From the IMG/VR virus record IMGVR_UViG_3300028888_000049: a stretch of 64,000 nucleotides of DNA. One strand, written 5' to 3'. Positions 21,812-56,822 of the stretch are shown here, one piece after another. Origin of the DNA: a virus (taxonomy: Duplodnaviria > Caudoviricetes). The position numbers and the translations under genes are program-made. The notes below the pieces were generated by a model. The model searched no databases. It was not told the origin of the DNA and saw nothing but the letters and a program-made list of their open reading frames with translations. The first letter of the stretch is position 1. Each line of letters opens with the position of its first letter.

Positions 21812-22125
21812 TGTCAGAATCAGATAATATAACACAAAATGATATGGAATTTGTAGATTTTAACAGATTTGCATTTATGTCTTATTGTATACATTCATTA
21901 AAAATCAGACATTGTTATACTACTTGCAAAAAGACTATGTTTGGAATAATCATTAAATTTTGTGATTTGAATATCTGTAAAATTTTTTTAGAATGGTTAG
22001 AAACTCATTATGGAATAGCCAAAGAGTATAAAAGTAAACCGAATAATTATAATAATGAAAAATATTCAGTTGAATTATCAAAACAAGATATAGAAAGAAT
22101 GAAATTTATTAAAGCTATTTATTAA
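21811..22125 (+). CDS. C-terminal-motif family protein
   Basis: WLETHYGI...QDIERMKFIKAIY; TAATG coupling. Confidence 0.8.
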   Translation: MSESDNITQNDMEFVDFNRFAFMSYCIHSLKIRHCYTTCKKTMFGIIIKFCDLNICKIFLEWLETHYGIAKEYKSKPNNYNNEKYSVELSKQDIERMKFIKAIY

Positions 22126-23437
22126 CCTTCTTTCCAATATCTTTATATTTAGAAACTAATTCTCTCTGTCTATTAATTTGTTTTTGAGTCTGTGCAAATC
22201 CCATATACTTACATAAGTGATCATTTTTAAGTATAGTAATGGCCATACGTTTCCAAGATGGTAATTCGGCTGTATGCATAATATCATCTGTACAATCTGG
22301 AGTACCTAAGAATATAACTTGTTGTTTCGGAGATATCTTATTAATTCTACCTAGATTACGTATTTTATATCCATGTTCTTCAAGTTCTTTAATTGTTTCA
22401 TCATCTAAGCATCCACCTTTCTTCCACCAAAATCTAATAGATACTTTAAACTTTTCAATATAGTTCTCTCTAATTGCATCAGGTAAAGTAGCAAGTAAAA
22501 ACTTAACGTAAGATCTCCAAGTATGTCCTTTTGGTAATGTAATACTTTTTGCACCTAATGCTTTTGTATCGCCATAAATCGCACCAAAATTAGCACCTTG
22601 TACACGTGATACTACTTTAATCCATGTCTGTGGCTCAATAACTCTATAAAGATTAAGACTTCCTTTTGCATACTCTTGATATGGACTAGCTACACGCATT
22701 TGATAAATACTTAATCCAGCTTTATAAAAAAGGTCATATAACTTATTATAAGGATAACCTTCTCTTGCATTAGCTATCCAAATATCTTCAGCACTCCAAT
22801 CATATATAGGATAACCGTGACAATAGTTTTCACCCTTCTTTGTAGTCCATTTATTATCACCAAAAGTTAATTTCTTTTGATTATTAACAGCTCTAAAACG
22901 ATTTAATGATTCATCAGTACGAATACCTAATAAACAAATAGTCTTACCAGGATGTGTTTTTGCATACCAATCTTCAAATCCTGCATAAAAATCTTCCTGA
23001 GACATTTTATATTCATAAAAATCAAATGGATGATTATATTGATTAATAACCCAAGGATAATTTGGCATAGGTCTAACCCACTGATCTTTTTTCTGATCAT
23101 CCCAAGGATACCAATACATTTGATAATTACTAACAGCACATCTTGATCCCATAGGAACACAACACCAATATGGTTCTATATCGTCAAGATTTTCAACAAA
23201 CATCTTTTCTACATACTTAGAAGTCTCTTCATATTGAGATTCGAAGTCTTGATGAAATACACCTATTTTCTTAGTAATACCATGTTTACGTTTATAGTCA
23301 AGAATAAGATTTAAAACCATTCCACTATCTTTACCACCAGAAAATGAAACGTATATATTATCAAAAGTATCAAATATATACTTAATACGTTCCTGTGTAG
23401 CATCCCAAACATTCTTACCAATATATCTCTTAGCCAT
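22115..23437 (-). CDS. ibrA: PAPS-reductase-family / DUF3440 protein (IbrA/YbdN-like)
   Basis: SFSGGKDS PP-loop, GIRTDESLNR, YPIYDW, C-terminal PSWKRM...KNDHLCK; adjacent to an IbrB-like gene. Confidence 0.9.
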   Translation of the reverse strand: MAKRYIGKNVWDATQERIKYIFDTFDNIYVSFSGGKDSGMVLNLILDYKRKHGITKKIGVFHQDFESQYEETSKYVEKMFVENLDDIEPYWCCVPMGSRCAVSNYQMYWYPWDDQKKDQWVRPMPNYPWVINQYNHPFDFYEYKMSQEDFYAGFEDWYAKTHPGKTICLLGIRTDESLNRFRAVNNQKKLTFGDNKWTTKKGENYCHGYPIYDWSAEDIWIANAREGYPYNKLYDLFYKAGLSIYQMRVASPYQEYAKGSLNLYRVIEPQTWIKVVSRVQGANFGAIYGDTKALGAKSITLPKGHTWRSYVKFLLATLPDAIRENYIEKFKVSIRFWWKKGGCLDDETIKELEEHGYKIRNLGRINKISPKQQVIFLGTPDCTDDIMHTAELPSWKRMAITILKNDHLCKYMGFAQTQKQINRQRELVSKYKDIGKKVNK

Positions 23438-23456
23438 AAATCTTATTCCTAAATCA

Positions 23457-23627
23457 TTATTGCAAAAAAGTACTAAAACTTATTCCCAAAGTAAAACCAC
23501 ATAATATAAAAATTATTACATATAAATTAAGATAATCACGTATATCTGCATTAATATGTTTTAAATATAAACTTATCATTAACGCAATCAAAGCTGACAT
23601 AAATCCAATCGTATTTAATAAAGTCAT
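23457..23627 (-). CDS. small two-TM membrane protein
   Basis: Two hydrophobic stretches; fills the gap between ibrB and ibrA. Confidence 0.55.
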   Translation of the reverse strand: MTLLNTIGFMSALIALMISLYLKHINADIRDYLNLYVIIFILCGFTLGISFSTFLQ

Positions 23628-23629
23628 TT

Positions 23630-24157
23630 TTAATCTACTTCCCAAGCTTCACTAAAATCTTTTTCTTTAAATAATGATGCTAAACCTGTAATTTGCTTTA
23701 ATCGCAATACTTCATCAGGACTCATACCAATATTTTTACAAATCCATGCATCACTCTTACCCATTTCAACTAACTCAGCAATAATATTACTCATTAAATC
23801 AACATTATGACTACCGCGTGCTCTATTATGACGAATAGTTGAAGCCATACGTTCTCCCAATTCTTTATCAATAGTAACTACCGGTAATAATCCATGCTCT
23901 CTCTCATAAATACGCTTACTAGTCTTCATTGTAGTATAACGGTGAAAACCATCTACAATAACATAACGGTCATTTTCTTTATCATAATAACATACAACTG
24001 GTTGTGTATATCCATCTTCCCATATACTTGTCTCTAATAACGCCATCTCAGGAGGAGCAACTTTATTAGGATTATATTCATTAGCATAAACTTTATCTAA
24101 AGGGACTGCTCTTACATTATATACAGGACTAAGAAATTTTTCATTTTCTTCAGACAT
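23630..24157 (-). CDS. ibrB: ParB/Srx-like protein (IbrB/YbdM-like)
   Basis: ANEYNPNKVAPPEM, IVDGFHR, STIRHNRARG; AAGGAG RBS before ATG 24157. Confidence 0.92.
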   Translation of the reverse strand: MSEENEKFLSPVYNVRAVPLDKVYANEYNPNKVAPPEMALLETSIWEDGYTQPVVCYYDKENDRYVIVDGFHRYTTMKTSKRIYEREHGLLPVVTIDKELGERMASTIRHNRARGSHNVDLMSNIIAELVEMGKSDAWICKNIGMSPDEVLRLKQITGLASLFKEKDFSEAWEVD

Positions 24158-24294
24158 AACAACTCCTTTTATCAATTAAACTTTAAATATATTATATATA
24201 AAGAACTGCTAAAGTAAAACAAAAAACATAAAGATTTTAAAGAATTTTTGACTTTACAAAATACATCATACAAAATATTATATATAAAAAGGAG

Positions 24295-25956: not shown

Positions 25957-27918
25957 CTACAATGTAATATCATACAACTGATTTACAAACTTTTTACCAT
26001 TCTTTTCACTAATCAAAATATAACAACCCAATTTACTCTCATCTAACTCCTTCAACTGAGCTGTATCTAATACCTTAACAAATTTTGAACAACTATTATA
26101 AACATACACAATCTCATGCTCTTTATCAGCTTTCTTATAACCAACCTTCTCTAAAGCTTCTAAATTAACTCTCTGCTTATCTACTAAATATACTAACTTT
26201 TTACCAGCATAAATACTGCCTAAATACTTTTGAATATAACTAAACCACTCATAAGTACCAAATACATAATACAAATTAGCTTGATTAACTAACTTAACAT
26301 TACCATCAGCTAATACAAAATAACTAAACACACCTACCAATTCATCTTTACGATAACATCCAATGAACTGTAACTGTGGATTAATCTCACTTGTAACAAT
26401 ATCAGCCTCAGAACTTAACTGCCTTAAAAACTCTAACGCTACAGCCTCTTTAATACTATCAAAACGTAACTTGTCATAAGACACCTTCACTGGAGCACTA
26501 CACTTCCAATTCAGCTTAAACGCCAAACTATCCCAAGGCATTTCCAAAAGTTTAAACATACATCTATCTCCTTTTTTATCAAAACTATATAATACGTTAT
26601 CACAAACTTTTCCATTTGTAAAGCGAAAAACATTATTTGTTGAAAATTTTCTTATTTTACTTCTATCTAAATTTCTAGCTCTGAACATACTACATAGAGT
26701 TGGTATAGTAGTATTATATTTGTGTGCTAATTCAGCCCATGATAATACTTTTGAGTCTTCTAATATATTATCAAATTGAATACTTAAATAATAAGTACTT
26801 TTTCTACCTATTACCCAACCTTCTCCAGGATATTCATATACTAGTTGATCTGTTTTGCCATCAGTATACCAAGTTCTACCTTTCTTTGCTTTTGCTAAAG
26901 CTTGTTTATGTTCTTCTGTAAATTTTAAATGAGGTGAATGCTGTGTCATACCTTTACTAAAACCTTCAGGAGGAACTACATCTGGTTTAATAAAGATATT
27001 AACTTCATCATTAGTATACCAAATTTTTCCAGAAATTATACTTGCTATCTTTTCTTTAAACTCTTTAGTCTGTGTAAAAGCATAAGTTTCTGGATTATAA
27101 TTTTCTTTTTTAGCTTTTGAAATCTTCTCTCCAACAGTTAATCTAGATTGTTTATACTTTTCAGAATTTTTTATTAATTCACCGTGTAATTTACACTTTT
27201 CTTCTGTCCAATACTTATGTCTATCATATTTATAATCAAGACCACGCGTTCTTAATGTATTCTGATAAGGATTAATAGATAAATTATATCCACCATGATC
27301 TATTCCAGCATTTTCAGACTTTATTAATTCATATTCTTTATTAAATAACTTTTCTTCACTATAACACCAACAAAGTATTTCTCTTTTAAACTTTTCTTTA
27401 CCATATAACTCTAAATCTTTCCAATAATCATCATTTTGAGAAGAAGACCAATAATCTTCATTAAAATACGGTAATTGACATTGACCAACATAACTTCTAT
27501 TATTCTCAAGGCATGTTATCTTATAAATATAACCAAACGGTAAATAATCTCTCACTAATACATCACTATCTTCAAAGAAATCACAATACTCTATATATTC
27601 TTTTTTATATGTCAAAAACGGACAAACTATCTTAATATTATTAGCTTTTAAAATCTCATTACATACACGCTTTATACCAACTCTTCCTTTACTGTCAATA
27701 AACGCCTTCTGATAAATCCACTTCCAATACGGTTCTTCACCTTCAACTAATATTACAGCATCTAACCTAACAATCTCATTTTCTATATCTTTTCCAGCTT
27801 TATATGACATAATAATAAGAGGATTACTATAACTTTTCAATAAACAAATGTCATCACCACTTATATACTTAACTATTTCTTCTAACTCAACTACTTTAGC
27901 ATATGTACTATATTTCAT
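25957..27918 (-). CDS. composite protein: central GIY-YIG homing-endonuclease-like region flanked by unrelated N- and C-terminal domains
   Basis: GYIYKITCLENNRSYVGQ, FKREIL, GGYNL; NUMOD3-like HKQALAKAKKG and WYTDG/WYTND repeats; C-terminal part resembles the GNAT-like tail of Hef-like phage nucleases. Confidence 0.75.
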   Translation of the reverse strand: MKYSTYAKVVELEEIVKYISGDDICLLKSYSNPLIIMSYKAGKDIENEIVRLDAVILVEGEEPYWKWIYQKAFIDSKGRVGIKRVCNEILKANNIKIVCPFLTYKKEYIEYCDFFEDSDVLVRDYLPFGYIYKITCLENNRSYVGQCQLPYFNEDYWSSSQNDDYWKDLELYGKEKFKREILCWCYSEEKLFNKEYELIKSENAGIDHGGYNLSINPYQNTLRTRGLDYKYDRHKYWTEEKCKLHGELIKNSEKYKQSRLTVGEKISKAKKENYNPETYAFTQTKEFKEKIASIISGKIWYTNDEVNIFIKPDVVPPEGFSKGMTQHSPHLKFTEEHKQALAKAKKGRTWYTDGKTDQLVYEYPGEGWVIGRKSTYYLSIQFDNILEDSKVLSWAELAHKYNTTIPTLCSMFRARNLDRSKIRKFSTNNVFRFTNGKVCDNVLYSFDKKGDRCMFKLLEMPWDSLAFKLNWKCSAPVKVSYDKLRFDSIKEAVALEFLRQLSSEADIVTSEINPQLQFIGCYRKDELVGVFSYFVLADGNVKLVNQANLYYVFGTYEWFSYIQKYLGSIYAGKKLVYLVDKQRVNLEALEKVGYKKADKEHEIVYVYNSCSKFVKVLDTAQLKELDESKLGCYILISEKNGKKFVNQLYDITL

Positions 27919-28255: not shown

Positions 28256-29815
28256 TTAAGCATTGTTGAAGTTAGCAATGTATCCTTTGCATAAGTATTC
28301 GGATTTGTTAATAAACAAATCGTAGAATGACAAGCAACCACGATGGTTTTTCAAATTAGGTGCCTGGAATGTCGGCGTGAAGTACAACGGAATCCACTCC
28401 GCTAAAATTATAGATGAGTCACCTAATTGGAAGCCTTTGAAGCCAAATACAACTTCGTCAGCAGCCAGTGTGTTGGTGTAAGGAACAGCGATAACACTGA
28501 TTGTGCCTTCACGCAAAGTACCAGCCAAGTACGGACCAATTGGTTTCTTAGCTTCAGGAGCAGCTTTGAAGCCTTCGATGTTTTCGATGACTGTTAAGCC
28601 TTCTTTAGCTGAGCAGATGATGAAGTCTACAGTACCACGACCAGCAACTTCTTGGATCAAGCCGCGAGCTGTTGAGATAGTCGTTGTATAAGAGCTATAT
28701 CTCTGTTGCAGTGTCAAGTTAGCACCATTAGCAGCACAGTCGAATGTCAAGTCTGCATAAGGAGTAGCAGCAGCAGAAACAGCACGAACTAATGTTAAGT
28801 CACGTTCCCAACGAATTGTACCAGCCATTTGGTTAGAGATCAATTCGTCAGTATCGATAGCTAAGTGAGCGTTCATAACCAAACCAGCAGCAACACTGTA
28901 AGAAGACATCAACGGATGTTCTTTAGCGAGAATCGGTTGGTTAGGAATATCGAACTGAATTTTACGAATCAAGTCAACGTCAGTTTCAGTATCAACAGCA
29001 CCTTCAAAGCTCATAACAGCTTTAGCGGCGATAGCTTCAGCATACAGAGCAGCATCCAATTTGATTGTAGCTTCACCTGTTTGAGCATTAACTGTACCAG
29101 CAACACCACGACCGATGATGTTGTATTCACCTTCGTTAACACCGTCTAATTTAGCAGAACCGTTACCGTAGTCACGGGCAATTTCTTTACCAGCCAAACG
29201 AACGATGAAAGAACCTGCACGCAATTTAACTGTAGCGTCATCCGGGAAAGCAGAAGACGGAGTAGCAGTAACTTCAGCAGCAGCTTCAGCGTTATCGTAA
29301 CCAATGAATTCAGAAGAATATGTACCATCAGTAGCTTGTTCGAATACGATATCACCAGCTTCAACACCAGCAGCACTCTGAGAATAACGTGTTTTGATGA
29401 TGAAGATTTGACCAGACTGACGATCTAAAGCCTGGATATCGGCAATGTAATTCGCAACCATCTGCGGATAAAAGATGTTGACGATATCTACGACTTTAGG
29501 AGTCAATGATGTAACGCCAGGAGACAAGAGAGAAACAGCGTTAGTGTTTCCACCGTCCAGACCAGCTTCCATCAAGTTGATGCCTTGTTCGTGTTGAACG
29601 TATTCAGCTGTGTTTTCGAGTAATTGAACCATTGTAGCAGCTTGGTATTGAGCGTCTTTGTTTTCAGACTCGATACCTTTAATCAAGTTCGGGCAGCGTG
29701 CACCCAGTGTAGATTCAGCCAAAACTTTAGCAGCGTGTTTAATGCCGTTGTTAACTTTAGCTGTACGAGCTTTAGCAACAGTTTCGTTAGCATTTACTTG
29801 AGCGAATAAACTCAT
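28256..29815 (-). CDS. major capsid protein (T4 Gp23-like, HK97 fold)
   Basis: 519 aa; Gp23-like segments (IADIQALDRQSGQIFIIK, ELISNQMAGTIRWERD, FGFKG...EWIPLY); strongest high-expression codon bias in the window; own terminator. Confidence 0.85.
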   Translation of the reverse strand: MSLFAQVNANETVAKARTAKVNNGIKHAAKVLAESTLGARCPNLIKGIESENKDAQYQAATMVQLLENTAEYVQHEQGINLMEAGLDGGNTNAVSLLSPGVTSLTPKVVDIVNIFYPQMVANYIADIQALDRQSGQIFIIKTRYSQSAAGVEAGDIVFEQATDGTYSSEFIGYDNAEAAAEVTATPSSAFPDDATVKLRAGSFIVRLAGKEIARDYGNGSAKLDGVNEGEYNIIGRGVAGTVNAQTGEATIKLDAALYAEAIAAKAVMSFEGAVDTETDVDLIRKIQFDIPNQPILAKEHPLMSSYSVAAGLVMNAHLAIDTDELISNQMAGTIRWERDLTLVRAVSAAATPYADLTFDCAANGANLTLQQRYSSYTTTISTARGLIQEVAGRGTVDFIICSAKEGLTVIENIEGFKAAPEAKKPIGPYLAGTLREGTISVIAVPYTNTLAADEVVFGFKGFQLGDSSIILAEWIPLYFTPTFQAPNLKNHRGCLSFYDLFINKSEYLCKGYIANFNNA

Positions 29816-29829
29816 AATTTAATTTCCTT

Positions 29830-29950
29830 ATAATAGATGAGATAGATTGTTTTAAGTTTTTTCCTATAAAATGTTGAGTTAATATCTATCTCTATAATTT
29901 GTTTTGTAACATCTGTTGAAAGGATAGCAGATGTAAATGTATAAAGAATG
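29830..29950 (-). promoter_or_regulatory. structured 5' leader and class 2-like promoter of capsid gene
   Basis: Hairpins GAGATAGA/TCTATCTC and ACATCTGTT/AGCAGATGT; ATTCTTTAT variant of the GTTCTA motif at ~29941-29949. Confidence 0.5.
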
Positions 29951-29982
29951 TTCGTTATTGTATAATTTCTTAGGTATTTTAT

Positions 29983-30168
29983 TTATTTCGATACATATAA
30001 AGATAGGTAGACTGACGTGTATTTTACCGTTCTGTACTTAAGATTTTGTATGTATTTTTGTGGAAATTTAATAAAATATAAAGAGTAGTGACAATAATAT
30101 ACTCTATAATCCAGAATAGTAGGAGGTGGAATCTCTTTGAAGTAAGATAATATGTTAGGAGATTCCAT
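29983..30168 (-). CDS. doubtful 61-aa ORF (leaderless gene or non-coding transcript)
   Basis: Class 2 motif about 10 nt upstream of the ATG; no RBS. Confidence 0.3.
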   Translation of the reverse strand: MESPNILSYFKEIPPPTILDYRVYYCHYSLYFIKFPQKYIQNLKYRTVKYTSVYLSLYVSK

Positions 30169-30355
30169 AATTATTGTATAGAACTGTATGCTGTATAAAG
30201 AGTATAGTATTTGTGAATTAATTATTTGAATTATTTTTCCGATTGTCTTGTTTTATCTTTATTTTTCAATTAGTTAAGATATGTTAAATTTTGCTTTACT
30301 TTTAATAAATTTTATGTTAATAATAGTACATTAAGTCAATTTTAAGGAGATTAAG

Positions 30356-30571
30356 ATGACAATTAAACATACTTCAGCCGATATAACAAAGTCATGGTTA
30401 CAAGAGTGGATTTGTAATAAGTCAGTAAATAATACAAAGAAATGGTTAAAAGAATGGATAGATGCACGTTCTTCTAATACTACTAAAATATGGTTAAGAA
30501 ATTGGGTAACTAATAAGTCAAAGAATAGAACTAAAAGCTGGATTAATTGTTGGATTAGACATAAATCTTAG
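30356..30571 (+). CDS. 71-aa Trp-rich protein with four 16-aa tandem repeats
   Basis: S-x-(N/D)-x-T-K-x-W-(L/I)-x-x-W-(I/V)-x-x-(K/R) x4; AAGGAG RBS; class 1 promoter at 30295. Confidence 0.8.
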   Translation: MTIKHTSADITKSWLQEWICNKSVNNTKKWLKEWIDARSSNTTKIWLRNWVTNKSKNRTKSWINCWIRHKS

Positions 30572-30596: not shown

Positions 30597-31154
30597 TTAG
30601 CCTTTATATCCATTGGCAAACATAGCTTTTCTTTGATTATCCGCTTCTTTTTTAGTTTTGAATTTACCGTGAGTACCTTCTTTACCTTTGTTTGTCCATG
30701 AATTACCTTGTTTAACAGTATCTTCATCTAGATCTATATCATTTTTTAGAGTTTCATATTTAGAATATAGTATATCTTTGATTGCTTTTAGATTACCATT
30801 ATTATTTGTATTTATGTTATATTTATTATCGTCTTTTTGTATATAAAATTCGTGATATATTTTAACTGGAAAAGTTTGTGCATTATTTTTTATTATAATA
30901 GTATGAACTTGTGGATGAATTGCTTTACCACCATCCCAAATAAATATATCATTATTTATAATTAAGCCTCTTATTTCTTTATATTGTGTATTATTTAAAA
31001 AGTTTATTAATTCTTCTTGATTTGGATTTTTAATTATAATTAATGGTTTTATTTCATCTACATTATTTAAATAATCTTTAATTATAGTTGCTTCATAAAG
31101 AGAAAGTCCTACTCTATTTAATTCTGCTTCTACTATTTTTCTAAATCGTAACAT
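30597..31154 (-). CDS. putative virion internal (cargo) protein: leader + module A + small basic module
   Basis: MLRFRKIVEAELNRVGLSLYE|A leader; KNP..KEIRGL..NDIFIWD..IH module; DLDE|D then GKFKTKKEA module. Confidence 0.7.
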   Translation of the reverse strand: MLRFRKIVEAELNRVGLSLYEATIIKDYLNNVDEIKPLIIIKNPNQEELINFLNNTQYKEIRGLIINNDIFIWDGGKAIHPQVHTIIIKNNAQTFPVKIYHEFYIQKDDNKYNINTNNNGNLKAIKDILYSKYETLKNDIDLDEDTVKQGNSWTNKGKEGTHGKFKTKKEADNQRKAMFANGYKG

Positions 31155-31163
31155 GTATTATCC

Positions 31164-32246
31164 TTAAATATTTTTTAATTCTATCGGAACAGTAGATATT
31201 TCATATATTTTATTCAATTCTTTTTCTATTTGTTTTTTAGAATAATATTTTTTATCTTCATTTATATCTTTTTCTATTTTTTCTTTATTTAAGATAATTT
31301 TAATTAAATAGTTATGTAAATTTTTTAATTCACCGCCATTACTATAATTACCTTCATTATCTTCGTTATTATACAATTCATTTATCCAATTTAAATAATT
31401 ATTTATACTTAAAGGATATTCTGGATAATGTTTTTTATAATAATATCTTTTATTTGTTTGAATTATACTTTCATGATTATTTGGTTCATATGGATATTGA
31501 AAAGGTAAGATTTTAAAATTTTCTGAAAGTTTATCTCCGTCTAAAACTAATATAGCTGGTCTAGAATATATACCTGTTGTATAATCATTTTTTAATTGTC
31601 GACTAGTACTTATACCGATATCTCTATTATGCCAAAGTGAATCCGTTTCTAATATTTTAATTAAATCTGACAATGAAGCTACTCCGTGATAAAGTAAACC
31701 TACTTGTTTAGCTTCTTTTAAAGTATTTTCATCTAAATCTTCTAATTCCCAGTCTTGATGCGGAGATATATTATATATTTCATTTTCACCGAAAGTATGC
31801 AAAAAATGTTTGTTATTTAATAAAATTTTTTTAAGTAAGTCTATATCTCTTATATTATTATCATTTCCTTTTTGAATATATCCTGCTTCTAATTTACCAT
31901 TATATACAAAATCACCAATATAAGAATTACTATCTATATGTATTCTTTCTTTTAATAAATTTAACATTTCTGTATGTATACAAAAATAAGCATCCCATAC
32001 ATAAAAATCATTATCAATAGCTAATCCTCTTAATTCTTTTTCTTCACAATTTTGTAAAATATTATCAATTTCAATACTTGATGGATTTTTATATACATAT
32101 AGATATCTTAAACCAGTATCAACAGCATCAAAATAAAGCAAGGTATTAGCTAATTCATCAATAGAAAATTTAATAGTAGAAGATTCATAAAGTGAAAATC
32201 CTATTTTATTTAATTCTGATTCTACTATTTCACGCCATTTAGACAT
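31164..32246 (-). CDS. putative virion internal protein: leader + module A + ART-like module
   Basis: MSKWREIVESELNKIGFSLYE|S leader; module A; DLDENTLKE|AKQVGLLYH...GISTSR...LVLDGDKLS...HES. Confidence 0.7.
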   Translation of the reverse strand: MSKWREIVESELNKIGFSLYESSTIKFSIDELANTLLYFDAVDTGLRYLYVYKNPSSIEIDNILQNCEEKELRGLAIDNDFYVWDAYFCIHTEMLNLLKERIHIDSNSYIGDFVYNGKLEAGYIQKGNDNNIRDIDLLKKILLNNKHFLHTFGENEIYNISPHQDWELEDLDENTLKEAKQVGLLYHGVASLSDLIKILETDSLWHNRDIGISTSRQLKNDYTTGIYSRPAILVLDGDKLSENFKILPFQYPYEPNNHESIIQTNKRYYYKKHYPEYPLSINNYLNWINELYNNEDNEGNYSNGGELKNLHNYLIKIILNKEKIEKDINEDKKYYSKKQIEKELNKIYEISTVPIELKNI

Positions 32247-32275
32247 TAATATATACTCTAATGAAATAAAAATAA

Positions 32276-32662
32276 TTATTTATTTTGAGGATTATCTTTA
32301 TTAGCTATATCCCATGTCATAAGATCATCTTTATTGAAACCGTCTACAAACCCTTTACCAACATATTTATTATTATTTGGCCTTTTGTCACAAAATTCAT
32401 TAAATAAATAATATCTCAAATCTTCTAGTTTATCAAGGGCTTTTTGTAATTTTTTATTACCTTTATATTTATTCCAAGCAAGGTGTTGTAAATCATTTTC
32501 TGCTTTTTCCAATATATTATCTATTTTTACTAAACCATCATCATAAAAATCTACTTCATAATTATCCATATCATAATCTATAGCTTGAGTTACTGAAGGA
32601 TTACCGATATCTTCTTCTAATTTTTGACAAGCTTCTTTAAAAATTCTAATATATTTATTCAT
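32276..32662 (-). CDS. putative virion internal protein
   Basis: MNKYIRIFKEACQKLEE|D leader; class 2 motif upstream. Confidence 0.7.
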   Translation of the reverse strand: MNKYIRIFKEACQKLEEDIGNPSVTQAIDYDMDNYEVDFYDDGLVKIDNILEKAENDLQHLAWNKYKGNKKLQKALDKLEDLRYYLFNEFCDKRPNNNKYVGKGFVDGFNKDDLMTWDIANKDNPQNK

Positions 32663-32703
32663 TTTGGATTTCCTTAAGATTTAGAAGAATTAAACATAAC
32701 TAA

Positions 32704-32710
32704 TAGAACT
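32704..32710 (-). promoter_or_regulatory. class 2 (putative late) promoter motif AGTTCTA
   Basis: Recurs upstream of about 12 genes on their sense strand. Confidence 0.6.
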
Positions 32711-32718
32711 ATTTATTT

Positions 32719-33603
32719 TTATTTAATTCTTCTACTTTTGTATTCAACTGTTTTAATTTCAGGTAATTGATCTATCTGATTATTTTTTAAAACAGCTTTG
32801 TGACCTTTTTCATCTCTTAGATATACTGGTAAATTTGGATACATACCTTTAAACATCTTTATATTTTTATTTATTTCTTGAATAACACTATTTAGTTTTT
32901 TATTATCAAGATAACTTTTTATATCATTTTCTGACGGATAACGAACTATTAAGCCAATTAAATATTTATTTAAATTATTAATAAACAATGGTTCAATTAA
33001 ATCATCAGAATATTCATCAGGAAATATAAACATATCCTTAATTAAATTATTAAATTTATTAAATTCAATCAAATGATCTAAATTTGATGAATCAAAATGT
33101 TTTTTAAAAAATTGTTTACGAGCTTTATTTATTGCATTATCTATATTTTTAAAAGGAATTTTTAGTTCACCTGTTTTATCATCTACATAACCGCCTAGTT
33201 CTTGTGAATCTACATATTTAAATAGTTCTTCTTTGGATATTTTGAATTTTTCTAATATTTTTTTTAATTCTTTTGAAAAAGTGTGTTTTTCTTGATGAGG
33301 CGGTATAACTTTAAACTCATCTGCGCTATTCATAAATCTATATATTTTATAGTTATCTGATAATTTATCACCATCTAATATTAATGTATAATAACTAAAA
33401 TGATGCCAACCTTTATCGTTAAACCACCCTTCATGCTTATCAAAAGATATACCACTACTAGTTTTAGCTTTTAAACAATTACTTTTAAGTATTTCTTGTA
33501 TATTCGATGTATTATGATATAAAGGGCCTACTTGTTTAGCTTCTTCTAGCGTATATCCAAATTCTTTTAAAACTGATTCTACTATTTTTTTGAATTCCGA
33601 CAT
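32719..33603 (-). CDS. putative virion internal protein: leader + ART-like module
   Basis: MSEFKKIVESVLKEFGYTLEE|AKQVGPLYH...GISFD...LILDGDKLS...ADEF. Confidence 0.7.
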   Translation of the reverse strand: MSEFKKIVESVLKEFGYTLEEAKQVGPLYHNTSNIQEILKSNCLKAKTSSGISFDKHEGWFNDKGWHHFSYYTLILDGDKLSDNYKIYRFMNSADEFKVIPPHQEKHTFSKELKKILEKFKISKEELFKYVDSQELGGYVDDKTGELKIPFKNIDNAINKARKQFFKKHFDSSNLDHLIEFNKFNNLIKDMFIFPDEYSDDLIEPLFINNLNKYLIGLIVRYPSENDIKSYLDNKKLNSVIQEINKNIKMFKGMYPNLPVYLRDEKGHKAVLKNNQIDQLPEIKTVEYKSRRIK

Positions 33604-33633
33604 TAAAATTTCCCTAATTGCTTAATTAACTAA

Positions 33634-33672
33634 TAGAACTACTATAGTTTTGTAATTATTTATAAAGTTCTA
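33634..33672. promoter_or_regulatory. back-to-back class 2 motifs (divergent promoters)
   Basis: TAGAACT at 33634 (minus) and AGTTCTA at 33666 (plus). Confidence 0.6.
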
Positions 33673-33706
33673 AATAAAAGTGTCTTATTTTTTTAGGAAT
33701 AGTCTT

Positions 33707-34096
33707 ATGAATAAGTATATTCAGTATTTTAGAGAAGCAGTTGAAGAGTTAGAAGAAGGTGATATTATCTCTTTTAATAGAAAGTTAGATAATCATCATT
33801 TTAAAATGGACTTAGATAAGTTACGTCAGTTAGGTGTAAGTTATCATTTATCTAGATTCTTAAATAGAGTTAATACTACTAAATATATGTCATTACTAGA
33901 AAAAGAAGCTTATGATGATCGTAATTTAAGATTATTTTTAAATGAAGTTATGGAAAATATAAGAAAAGATGAAGCTTTGTCTTATGATTTTGATTTAGTT
34001 AAAGAAAGATATGCTGGAAGTGATATTAAAGATTATTTGTTTTTAGGGAAGTTATTATCACTTATTAAAGGTTTTGAAGTATCTTTGGCTGCGTAA
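33707..34096 (+). CDS. putative virion internal protein
   Basis: MNKYIQYFREAVEELEE|G leader like 32276..32662; AGGA RBS at ATG 33707. Confidence 0.7.
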   Translation: MNKYIQYFREAVEELEEGDIISFNRKLDNHHFKMDLDKLRQLGVSYHLSRFLNRVNTTKYMSLLEKEAYDDRNLRLFLNEVMENIRKDEALSYDFDLVKERYAGSDIKDYLFLGKLLSLIKGFEVSLAA

Positions 34097-52050: not shown

Positions 52051-52120
52051 ATTTTCGATTTTATTTTAATTAATATCTATCATAATATAGTTCTATAAAA
52101 TAATAAAAGGAGATTTTTTC

Positions 52121-56673: not shown

Positions 56674-56703
56674 AATATTTCCTTATTTTTATTATTTATT
56701 TAA

Positions 56704-56750
56704 TAGAACTTGCAAAAATTATTCTATTTTTCAGAAAAAATGTAGTTCTA
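56704..56750. promoter_or_regulatory. back-to-back class 2 motifs
   Basis: TAGAACT at 56704 (minus) and AGTTCTA at 56744 (plus). Confidence 0.6.
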
Positions 56751-56822
56751 TATAAATGTATGGTGTCATGAACATGAGCTATACAAAGAACTTAAATTGC
56801 TAACAACTTAGGATTTAATAAA

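Follow-up and report, generated by a model that had tools for sequence, protein, structure and literature searches.

A putative polyprotein-type head-cargo cassette beside the gp23-type capsid gene of an uncultured jumbo phage

The internal proteins of T-even phages are diverse and have only a capsid targeting sequence (CTS) in common (PMC3012670, PMC12373910), which the protease gp21 removes from the T4 internal proteins and from Alt (PMC3012670, PMC5694885, PMC12373910). The ip loci are described as a variable hotspot, with at least 10 internal proteins recognised by their leader (as related in PMC12373910, citing Repoila 1994), and those T4 internal proteins whose target is known are small and inhibit restriction enzymes of the GmrSD kind (PMC12373910). 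In the phiKZ-like giant phages (phiKZ, SPN3US), ejection or inner-body proteins are processed by a gp21-related protease (PMC5694885). Here, we analysed a stretch of 64,000 nucleotides (hereafter, the window) from a virus of the Caudoviricetes (IMG/VR record IMGVR_UViG_3300028888_000049), in which five genes (30597–34096), here termed A to E, adjoin a major capsid protein gene of the gp23 type. We propose, with a probability of roughly 0.6, that these genes form a hypervariable late-gene cassette for head cargo comparable to the internal proteins and the Alt protein of T4, in polyprotein form.

The original prediction held that the five genes share N-terminal leaders ending in L-x-E, behind which a few modules are combined in different ways. 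Indeed, all five open reading frames (ORFs) are present, and their leaders are of two types: L1 on genes A, B and D, and L2 on genes C and E. Gene A (30597..31154, minus strand; 185 aa) consists of leader L1 (residues 1–21; 31092–31154, minus strand), module A (residues 22–131), a disordered linker running to D-L-D-E (residues 132–144) and module C (residues 145–185; 30600–30722, minus strand). Gene B (31164..32246, minus strand; 360 aa) joins leader L1 (residues 1–21; 32184–32246, minus strand) to module A (residues 22–163), a disordered linker running to T-L-K-E (residues 164–178; 31713–31757, minus strand) and module B, which is predicted to have the fold of an ADP-ribosyltransferase (ART; residues 179–360; 31167–31712, minus strand). 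Gene C (32276..32662, minus strand; 128 aa), the head of a C-B-A operon, carries leader L2 (residues 1–17, to L-E-E↓D, where the arrow marks the border; 32612–32662, minus strand) before a cargo of unassigned fold. Gene D (32719..33603, minus strand; 294 aa) carries leader L1 (residues 1–21, to L-E-E↓A; 33541–33603, minus strand) before a diverged B module (B′) with a long insertion and a C-terminal extension. Lastly, gene E (33707..34096, plus strand; 129 aa from its ATG) carries leader L2 (to L-E-E↓G; 33707–33757, plus strand) before a cargo of unassigned fold. The start of gene E is most likely the ATG at 33707 rather than the GTG at 33680, because the MNKYIQ leader begins there, an AGGA ribosome site stands before it and it lies 33 nt past the promoter motif described below.

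Paralogy within the window, as seen by BLASTP, supports the combinations that had been put forward, namely leader+A+C, leader+A+B and leader+B (the last in gene D, as B′). The products of genes A and B are 39% identical over the 98 aa that take in the leader and module A (E = 6e-20), residues 175–249 of B match residues 18–90 of D (42% identity, E = 1e-9), and A and D match from the shared leader onward over 39 aa (E = 4e-4). The L1 coding regions of the three genes show 80% identity per alignment column, and 11 of the 17 residues are identical between the leaders of C and E. The DNA said to be shared at the start of module B was also found: the 18-mer encoding E-A-K-Q-V-G occurs in exactly two copies, at 31699 and 33527, for a chance expectation of 0. 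In this set, the leaders end in L-Y-E↓A, L-Y-E↓S, L-E-E↓A, L-E-E↓D and L-E-E↓G, and neither the L1 nor the L2 pattern occurs again in the six-frame translation of the window. Database searches were uninformative: Pfam and PHROGs returned nothing meaningful for the five proteins and no structural annotation, and neither megablast of the locus nor tblastn of module B gave any match to cultured phages. As module B is unmatched there, no phage with a characterised proteome can serve as a stand-in.

The behaviour of the leaders in relatives, for which we took 15 IMG/VR loci from related jumbo phages whose capsid protein is 57–82% identical to that of the window, is the first line of evidence for the proposed reading. 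Each relative has between zero and five leader genes (L1 or L2) around its capsid gene, nearly all of them upstream, and most stand on the capsid strand amid small genes of the opposite strand. A whole-genome scan of one related genome (G002, 227 kb) found two L2 genes only, both 3–9 kb upstream of the capsid gene. The leaders are 14–21 aa long and follow the patterns M-S-x-F-R-x-I-V-E... (L1) and M-N-K-Y-I-Q-x-F-R-E... (L2). Over the collected homologues, L1 precedes the cargos A+B, A+C, B, B+C, X+C and R+C, and L2 precedes B, A+C and R+C; module B was also found with a short leader of a third type. Since B, A+C and R+C each recur behind both L1 and L2, one cargo goes with several leaders, and one leader with several cargos. 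The modules are also encoded singly, in genes with a leader of their own. Homologues of gene D, with 62 representatives at E ≤ 1e-3, are mostly of a short-leader build, the module beginning at most 23 residues from the N-terminus.

The second line of evidence concerns the borders between modules. Tripeptides of the form [LIVF]-x-E occupy 2.2–2.9% of positions in these proteins and are thus so common that a single site means little. Across homologues, the picture is different: when all copies are counted, [LIVF]-x-E stands before the B module in 71 of 74 cases and before the C module in 75 of 78, and internal C modules are also followed by it within 12 aa in 30 of 37 cases. In the 64-row alignment of the B family, 62 rows have L, I, F or V at P3, 61 have E at P1 and 58 have A, G or S at P1′; P2 is free. 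On these alignments, conservation of the motif at borders is far above chance, and the claim that the module borders of the window (D-L-D-E, T-L-K-E) fall at L-x-E is borne out well beyond the background. In the AlphaFold2 (AF2) models, the leader forms a helix at residues 2–14, and the leader end and both internal linkers have a predicted local distance difference test score (pLDDT) below 50. The model of gene A shows an alpha/beta module, a linker at residues 132–143 with pLDDT below 50, and three strands and a helix at residues 146–180; in that of gene B, the B part reaches a pLDDT of about 90, and the linkers stay below 50. Border residues that are conserved yet predicted to be disordered point to a linear motif rather than to a part of the fold, and a protease site would fit this description.

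The third line of evidence is a promoter motif. It had been proposed that four of the five genes have such a motif upstream of themselves or of their operon head; its presence stood up, and the count was revised, as AGTTCTAW serves all five through the C-B-A operon, D and E. The motif AGTTCTAT lies 40 nt before gene C (32703..32710, minus strand) and 29 nt before gene D (33633..33640, minus strand), and AGTTCTAA (33666..33673, plus strand), which points away from gene D, has a spacing of 33 nt to the ATG of gene E. No separate motif precedes gene A or gene B; the two come after gene C with spacings of 29 and 9 nt, which argues for a C-B-A operon. A further copy of AGTTCTAT (30178..30185, minus strand), located 370 nt upstream of the capsid gene start, is probably the late promoter of that gene, with a long 5′ leader. 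If so, 29816–30185 would be a 370-nt untranslated capsid leader; in 7 of 10 loci of relatives, the motif precedes the capsid gene by 196–277 nt. Over-representation of the 8-mer can be ruled out, with 10 copies of AGTTCTAW found in the window against 11.8 expected, so that its placement alone is informative: 7 of the 10 copies lie at most 120 nt upstream of the start of a same-strand ORF, and six of these at 24–71 nt. AGTTCTA also precedes leader genes in relatives. In G002, 29 of 38 copies lie at most 100 nt upstream of an ORF, and the ORFs concerned include the tail sheath (3e-65), the baseplate hub and the protease. The position of the motif before tail sheath, baseplate hub, protease and capsid genes marks it, on sequence grounds, as a late promoter shared with virion genes. 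Further well-placed copies in the window (52089–52096, 56703–56710 and 56744–56751) precede genes of 133, 154 and 167 aa, which are candidates for further late or virion genes.

The head proteins themselves provide a fourth line of evidence. The major capsid protein (28256..29815, minus strand; 519 aa) is of the gp23 type (Pfam Gp23, 1.2e-22; PHROG major head protein, 7e-27), with just 34–35% identity to its nearest cultured relatives. In the BLASTP alignment with T4 gp23, its L81-M82-E83↓A84 falls on T4 L63-T64-E65↓A66, that is, on the L-T-E↓A at Glu65 that we take to be the maturation cleavage site of gp23; the annotation of T4 gene 23 states that the product is cleaved by gp21. L81-M82-E83↓A84 is therewith a probable propeptide site, as predicted from the alignment. 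In all related capsid proteins examined (printed N-termini, by eye), the corresponding position reads [LF]-x-E followed by D or A. As for the enzyme, Peptidase S77 (PF03420) was detected in three of five related genomes (E = 4e-7 to 8e-5), within open frames of 817–997 aa, and one of the three frames also matches the PHROG head maturation protease (phrog_207, 1e-11).

Concerning the cargo, a named fold could be proposed for module B. VIA-align placed its model closest to yeast Tpt1 (7yw4; Z = 9.9, root-mean-square deviation 2.6, 109 of 120 residues aligned), DarT followed with Z = 6.4–7.7, and most other rows among the top 40 were ARTs; the leading Foldseek matches were likewise Tpt1/KptA and DarT chains. 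The modelled structure of module B is thus described by these searches as an ART fold of the Tpt1/DarT-like kind. Pfam Tox-ART-HYD1 (PF15633) gave a weak match in two of 64 B-family members (E = 2.3e-4) and none for genes B and D. The catalytic signature of the ART superfamily consists of H or R on strand 1, S-x-S/T and a catalytic Glu within [QE]-x-E; the consensus of the 64-row alignment retains H187, S213-x-T/S215 and E257-x-E259. Some members of the family have further parts: two B-module proteins (P0004 and P0007) end in C-terminal DUF4116 repeats (PF13475, best E = 2.9e-13), and a third (P0022, 1260 aa) contains four B modules, each placed after [ILF]-x-E↓A. By eye, from the printed sequence only, P0022 also shows an HExxH metallopeptidase-like motif and a Nudix-like box; its sequence gives it the appearance of an extreme polyprotein within the B-module family. 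Module A is modelled as an alpha/beta domain. Its identification as a polyphosphate kinase domain was considered and dropped, the best fold-search score (Z = 5.5) not being convincing.

Module C is a basic stretch of 40 aa, with three strands and a helix in the AF2 model. Gene A retrieved 89 proteins (P0074–P0161) that are otherwise mutually unrelated, and in most of them module C is 80–95% identical. It stands at the start, in the middle or at the end of proteins, sometimes in two copies, with more than 85 different fusion partners, and when internal it is usually followed by E-S-L-x-E. One of its carriers (P0111) has a PemK/MazF toxin domain. Gene A and most module-C proteins stay below every Pfam threshold. 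The nearest described family is DUF2188 (PF09954), which shares the fold of three strands and a helix and to which module C gave a weak match in two of 76 proteins (E = 4.6e-4); to our knowledge, neither bracketing by L-x-E nor fusion to many unrelated partners has been described for DUF2188. For module C, the ESM Atlas returned unnamed clusters only, with scores below 0.9, and fold searches returned weak matches (Z = 3–4) to YegP-like, AP2/ERF and lambda Int N-terminal DNA-binding domains. DNA binding by module C, which these modelled similarities may suggest, is accordingly to be taken as a lead and not as evidence.

If the cassette encodes head cargo, its operation would most likely be as follows. 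Each product would begin with one of two interchangeable amphipathic leaders, ending in L-x-E, and this leader would dock the protein onto the assembling prohead core. A gp21-type prohead protease would then cut after the Glu of [LIVF]-x-E, removing the leader and probably also separating the modules at the conserved disordered linkers. The freed modules would remain in the head and exit with the DNA. Every computable part of the original prediction came out in favour of such cargo loading (leader swapping, borders, capsid site, protease of the relatives, promoter and ART fold), while targeting, loading, cleavage, retention in the head and injection are steps that we infer.

Several observations weigh against this reading. 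Firstly, the leaders resemble the T4 CTS only in their pattern, 10 residues being too short for statistics, and the reading as a whole is drawn from the genes of an uncultured phage alone. Secondly, a gp21-type protease gene is absent from the 64,000-nt window and was seen in relatives only, where the matches are weak by Pfam standards (26.5 bits, for a cut-off of 27). Thirdly, in one relative (L006, 1804–2550, plus strand), a 248-aa ORF has the L2 sequence in its middle, with an unrelated N-terminal domain on one side and a cargo like that of gene C on the other; either the leader can also be used as an internal linker, or the ORF is a recent gene fusion. Fourthly, gene B has N-H-E in place of E-x-E, keeping the second Glu alone, and the alignment of gene D around E-x-E is unreliable owing to its insertion, which leaves the catalytic activity of both uncertain. 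Finally, the homologues are mutually related, so that the border counts are not independent events, and the residues that follow the border Glu (A-K-Q-V-G, D-T-V-K-Q) are invariant and as conserved as the Glu itself. The latter suggests that the border is inherited together with the module, in which case the Glu could be a structural cap instead of a cleavage site.

This last point leads directly to the most serious alternative, according to which the proteins are packaged and lose their leader alone, the internal L-x-E sites being flexible linkers or N-caps and the multi-module proteins staying whole. A domain start inherited with its module would fit the conservation found after the Glu, and T4 offers a precedent, since the multi-domain Alt loses an N-terminal piece only (PMC5694885). 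Yet such linkers or caps sit poorly with border residues that are conserved though predicted to be disordered, with P3 and P1 fixed while P2 is free, with internal C modules bracketed on both sides in 30 of 37 cases, and with the same modules existing as stand-alone genes that have their own leader. We therefore regard removal of the leader alone as unlikely.

A second alternative is that the proteins are not packaged at all and act late in the cytoplasm, for instance as ART toxins on host or phage nucleic acids, with the shared N-terminal helix put to another use such as oligomerisation, the binding of a partner or the control of translation. The proteins nearest in fold, DarT and Tpt1, are enzymes of the cytoplasm, neither Pfam nor PHROGs provides a structural annotation, and the presence of the proteins of the cassette in virions is read from their genes only. 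Against this, the genes adjoin the capsid gene and use a promoter class common to virion genes, the leaders and the capsid propeptide site obey one tripeptide rule, and the leaders match the T4 CTS in length and pattern. Moreover, the swapping of two unrelated leaders on the same cargos is easier to reconcile with an address tag than with a part of an enzyme. A cytoplasmic role seems to us improbable on this balance. The weakest alternative, that of scaffold or core proteins for head building like T4 gp22, gp67 and gp68, could invoke that the genes stand immediately upstream of the capsid gene and share its strand (as do gp67, gp68, gp21 and gp22 in T4) and that they have many L-x-E sites (T4 gp22, gp67 and gp68 being cut by gp21), but it was rejected as very improbable because a number varying from 0 to 5 among close relatives marks the genes as accessory, and because the modules are globular (ART fold, alpha/beta) and not coiled-coil.

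The head-cargo reading may also be carried one step further, in a form to which we give well under even odds. The prohead protease would cut true cargo polyproteins at all [LIVF]-x-E linkers, and module C would be a second tag. One late precursor, loaded by an exchangeable leader, would in this case yield several independent effectors. Module C would act as a position-independent address or DNA-anchoring tag, clipped off afterwards; like the cargo-loading peptides of encapsulins, it could bring in nearly any protein. It has sites on both sides and more than 85 unrelated partners, a MazF-like toxin among them.

With regard to the genomic setting, the window is very AT-rich (G+C approx. 25%), and its proteins were also matched on a 263-kb contig; it comes from an uncultured jumbo phage whose capsid is of the gp23 type. 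Genes D, C, B and A stand upstream of the capsid gene and on its strand, with gene E divergent from D. The stretch that separates the capsid gene from gene A contains, on the other strand, a 71-aa ORF (30356–30571, plus strand) made of four W-x-x-x-W repeats, and a copy of AGTTCTAT (30525–30532) lies antisense within it. Directly downstream of the capsid gene, a 653-aa protein (25957–27918, minus strand) has a GIY-YIG homing-endonuclease core; segD likewise comes directly after gene 23 in the T4 annotation. At 22115–24175 (minus strand) lies an IbrA/IbrB-like pair, possibly with a role in DNA or nucleotide modification, whose members are PAPS-reductase-like (phrog_2302, 2e-108) and ParB-like (phrog_2159, 2.5e-80).

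If the head-cargo reading is true, the addressing of proteins to the head by a removable leader, as in T4, would be widespread in uncultured jumbo phages of the gut and rumen, and the T4 trick would have been extended there to a combinatorial system built from two leaders, from linkers with protease sites and from modules that can be reused. Metagenomes could then be searched for injected effectors by sequence, the rule being the occurrence of [LIVF]-x-E with either a leader or module C, and the Tpt1/DarT-like ART and the MazF-like toxin fusion would be candidate first-strike proteins. The T4 CTS is already in use for loading foreign proteins into capsids, and the cassette could possibly supply new tags for the same end.

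Among described systems, the T4 internal proteins come closest. In both cases, otherwise unrelated proteins have a short N-terminal leader in common, which ends in (L/I)-x-E before a small residue: T4 IPII and IPIII begin M-K-T-Y-Q-E-F-I-A-E↓A, and the IPI leader ends in I-T-E↓A. Both occur with a gp23-type capsid, whose propeptide sites align, and both are expressed late, as predicted here from promoter sequence. In both, too, the gene set varies between related phages (for T4, as related in PMC12373910, citing Repoila 1994). By contrast, the cassette has two leader classes that are swapped on the same cargo, several modules joined polyprotein-like by conserved L-x-E linkers, and larger cargos, including an enzyme fold; beyond the pattern there is no sequence homology, and the proteins described here are known as genes.

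T4 Alt, which according to its annotation is in the capsid and enters with the DNA, resembles module B in its ART fold and has an N-terminal I-x-E site (it starts M-E-L-I-T-E). It differs in its kind of ART: Alt is of the R-S-E type, another ART clade, whereas module B matches Tpt1/DarT and, weakly, Tox-ART-HYD1, and no sequence similarity between module B and Alt was found.

In the phiKZ-like phages, families of head-protein paralogues vary in number, and their N-terminal propeptides are thought to be targeting signals; the paralogues gp53 and gp54 have identical N-termini, while the rest has diverged (PMC5694885). Processing there follows A/S/G-x-E, and propeptides often exceed 100 aa (PMC5694885), whereas here, as in T4, P3 is L, I, V or F and the leaders have 14–21 aa. 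Assignment of the cassette to the phiKZ-type inner-body or ejection class was rejected on this mismatch of motif and propeptide length. The principle itself, known since the work on T4, is not new, and no concept is overturned; new are the two exchangeable leaders, the conserved linkers of protease type by which modules are joined, and the ubiquitous module C.

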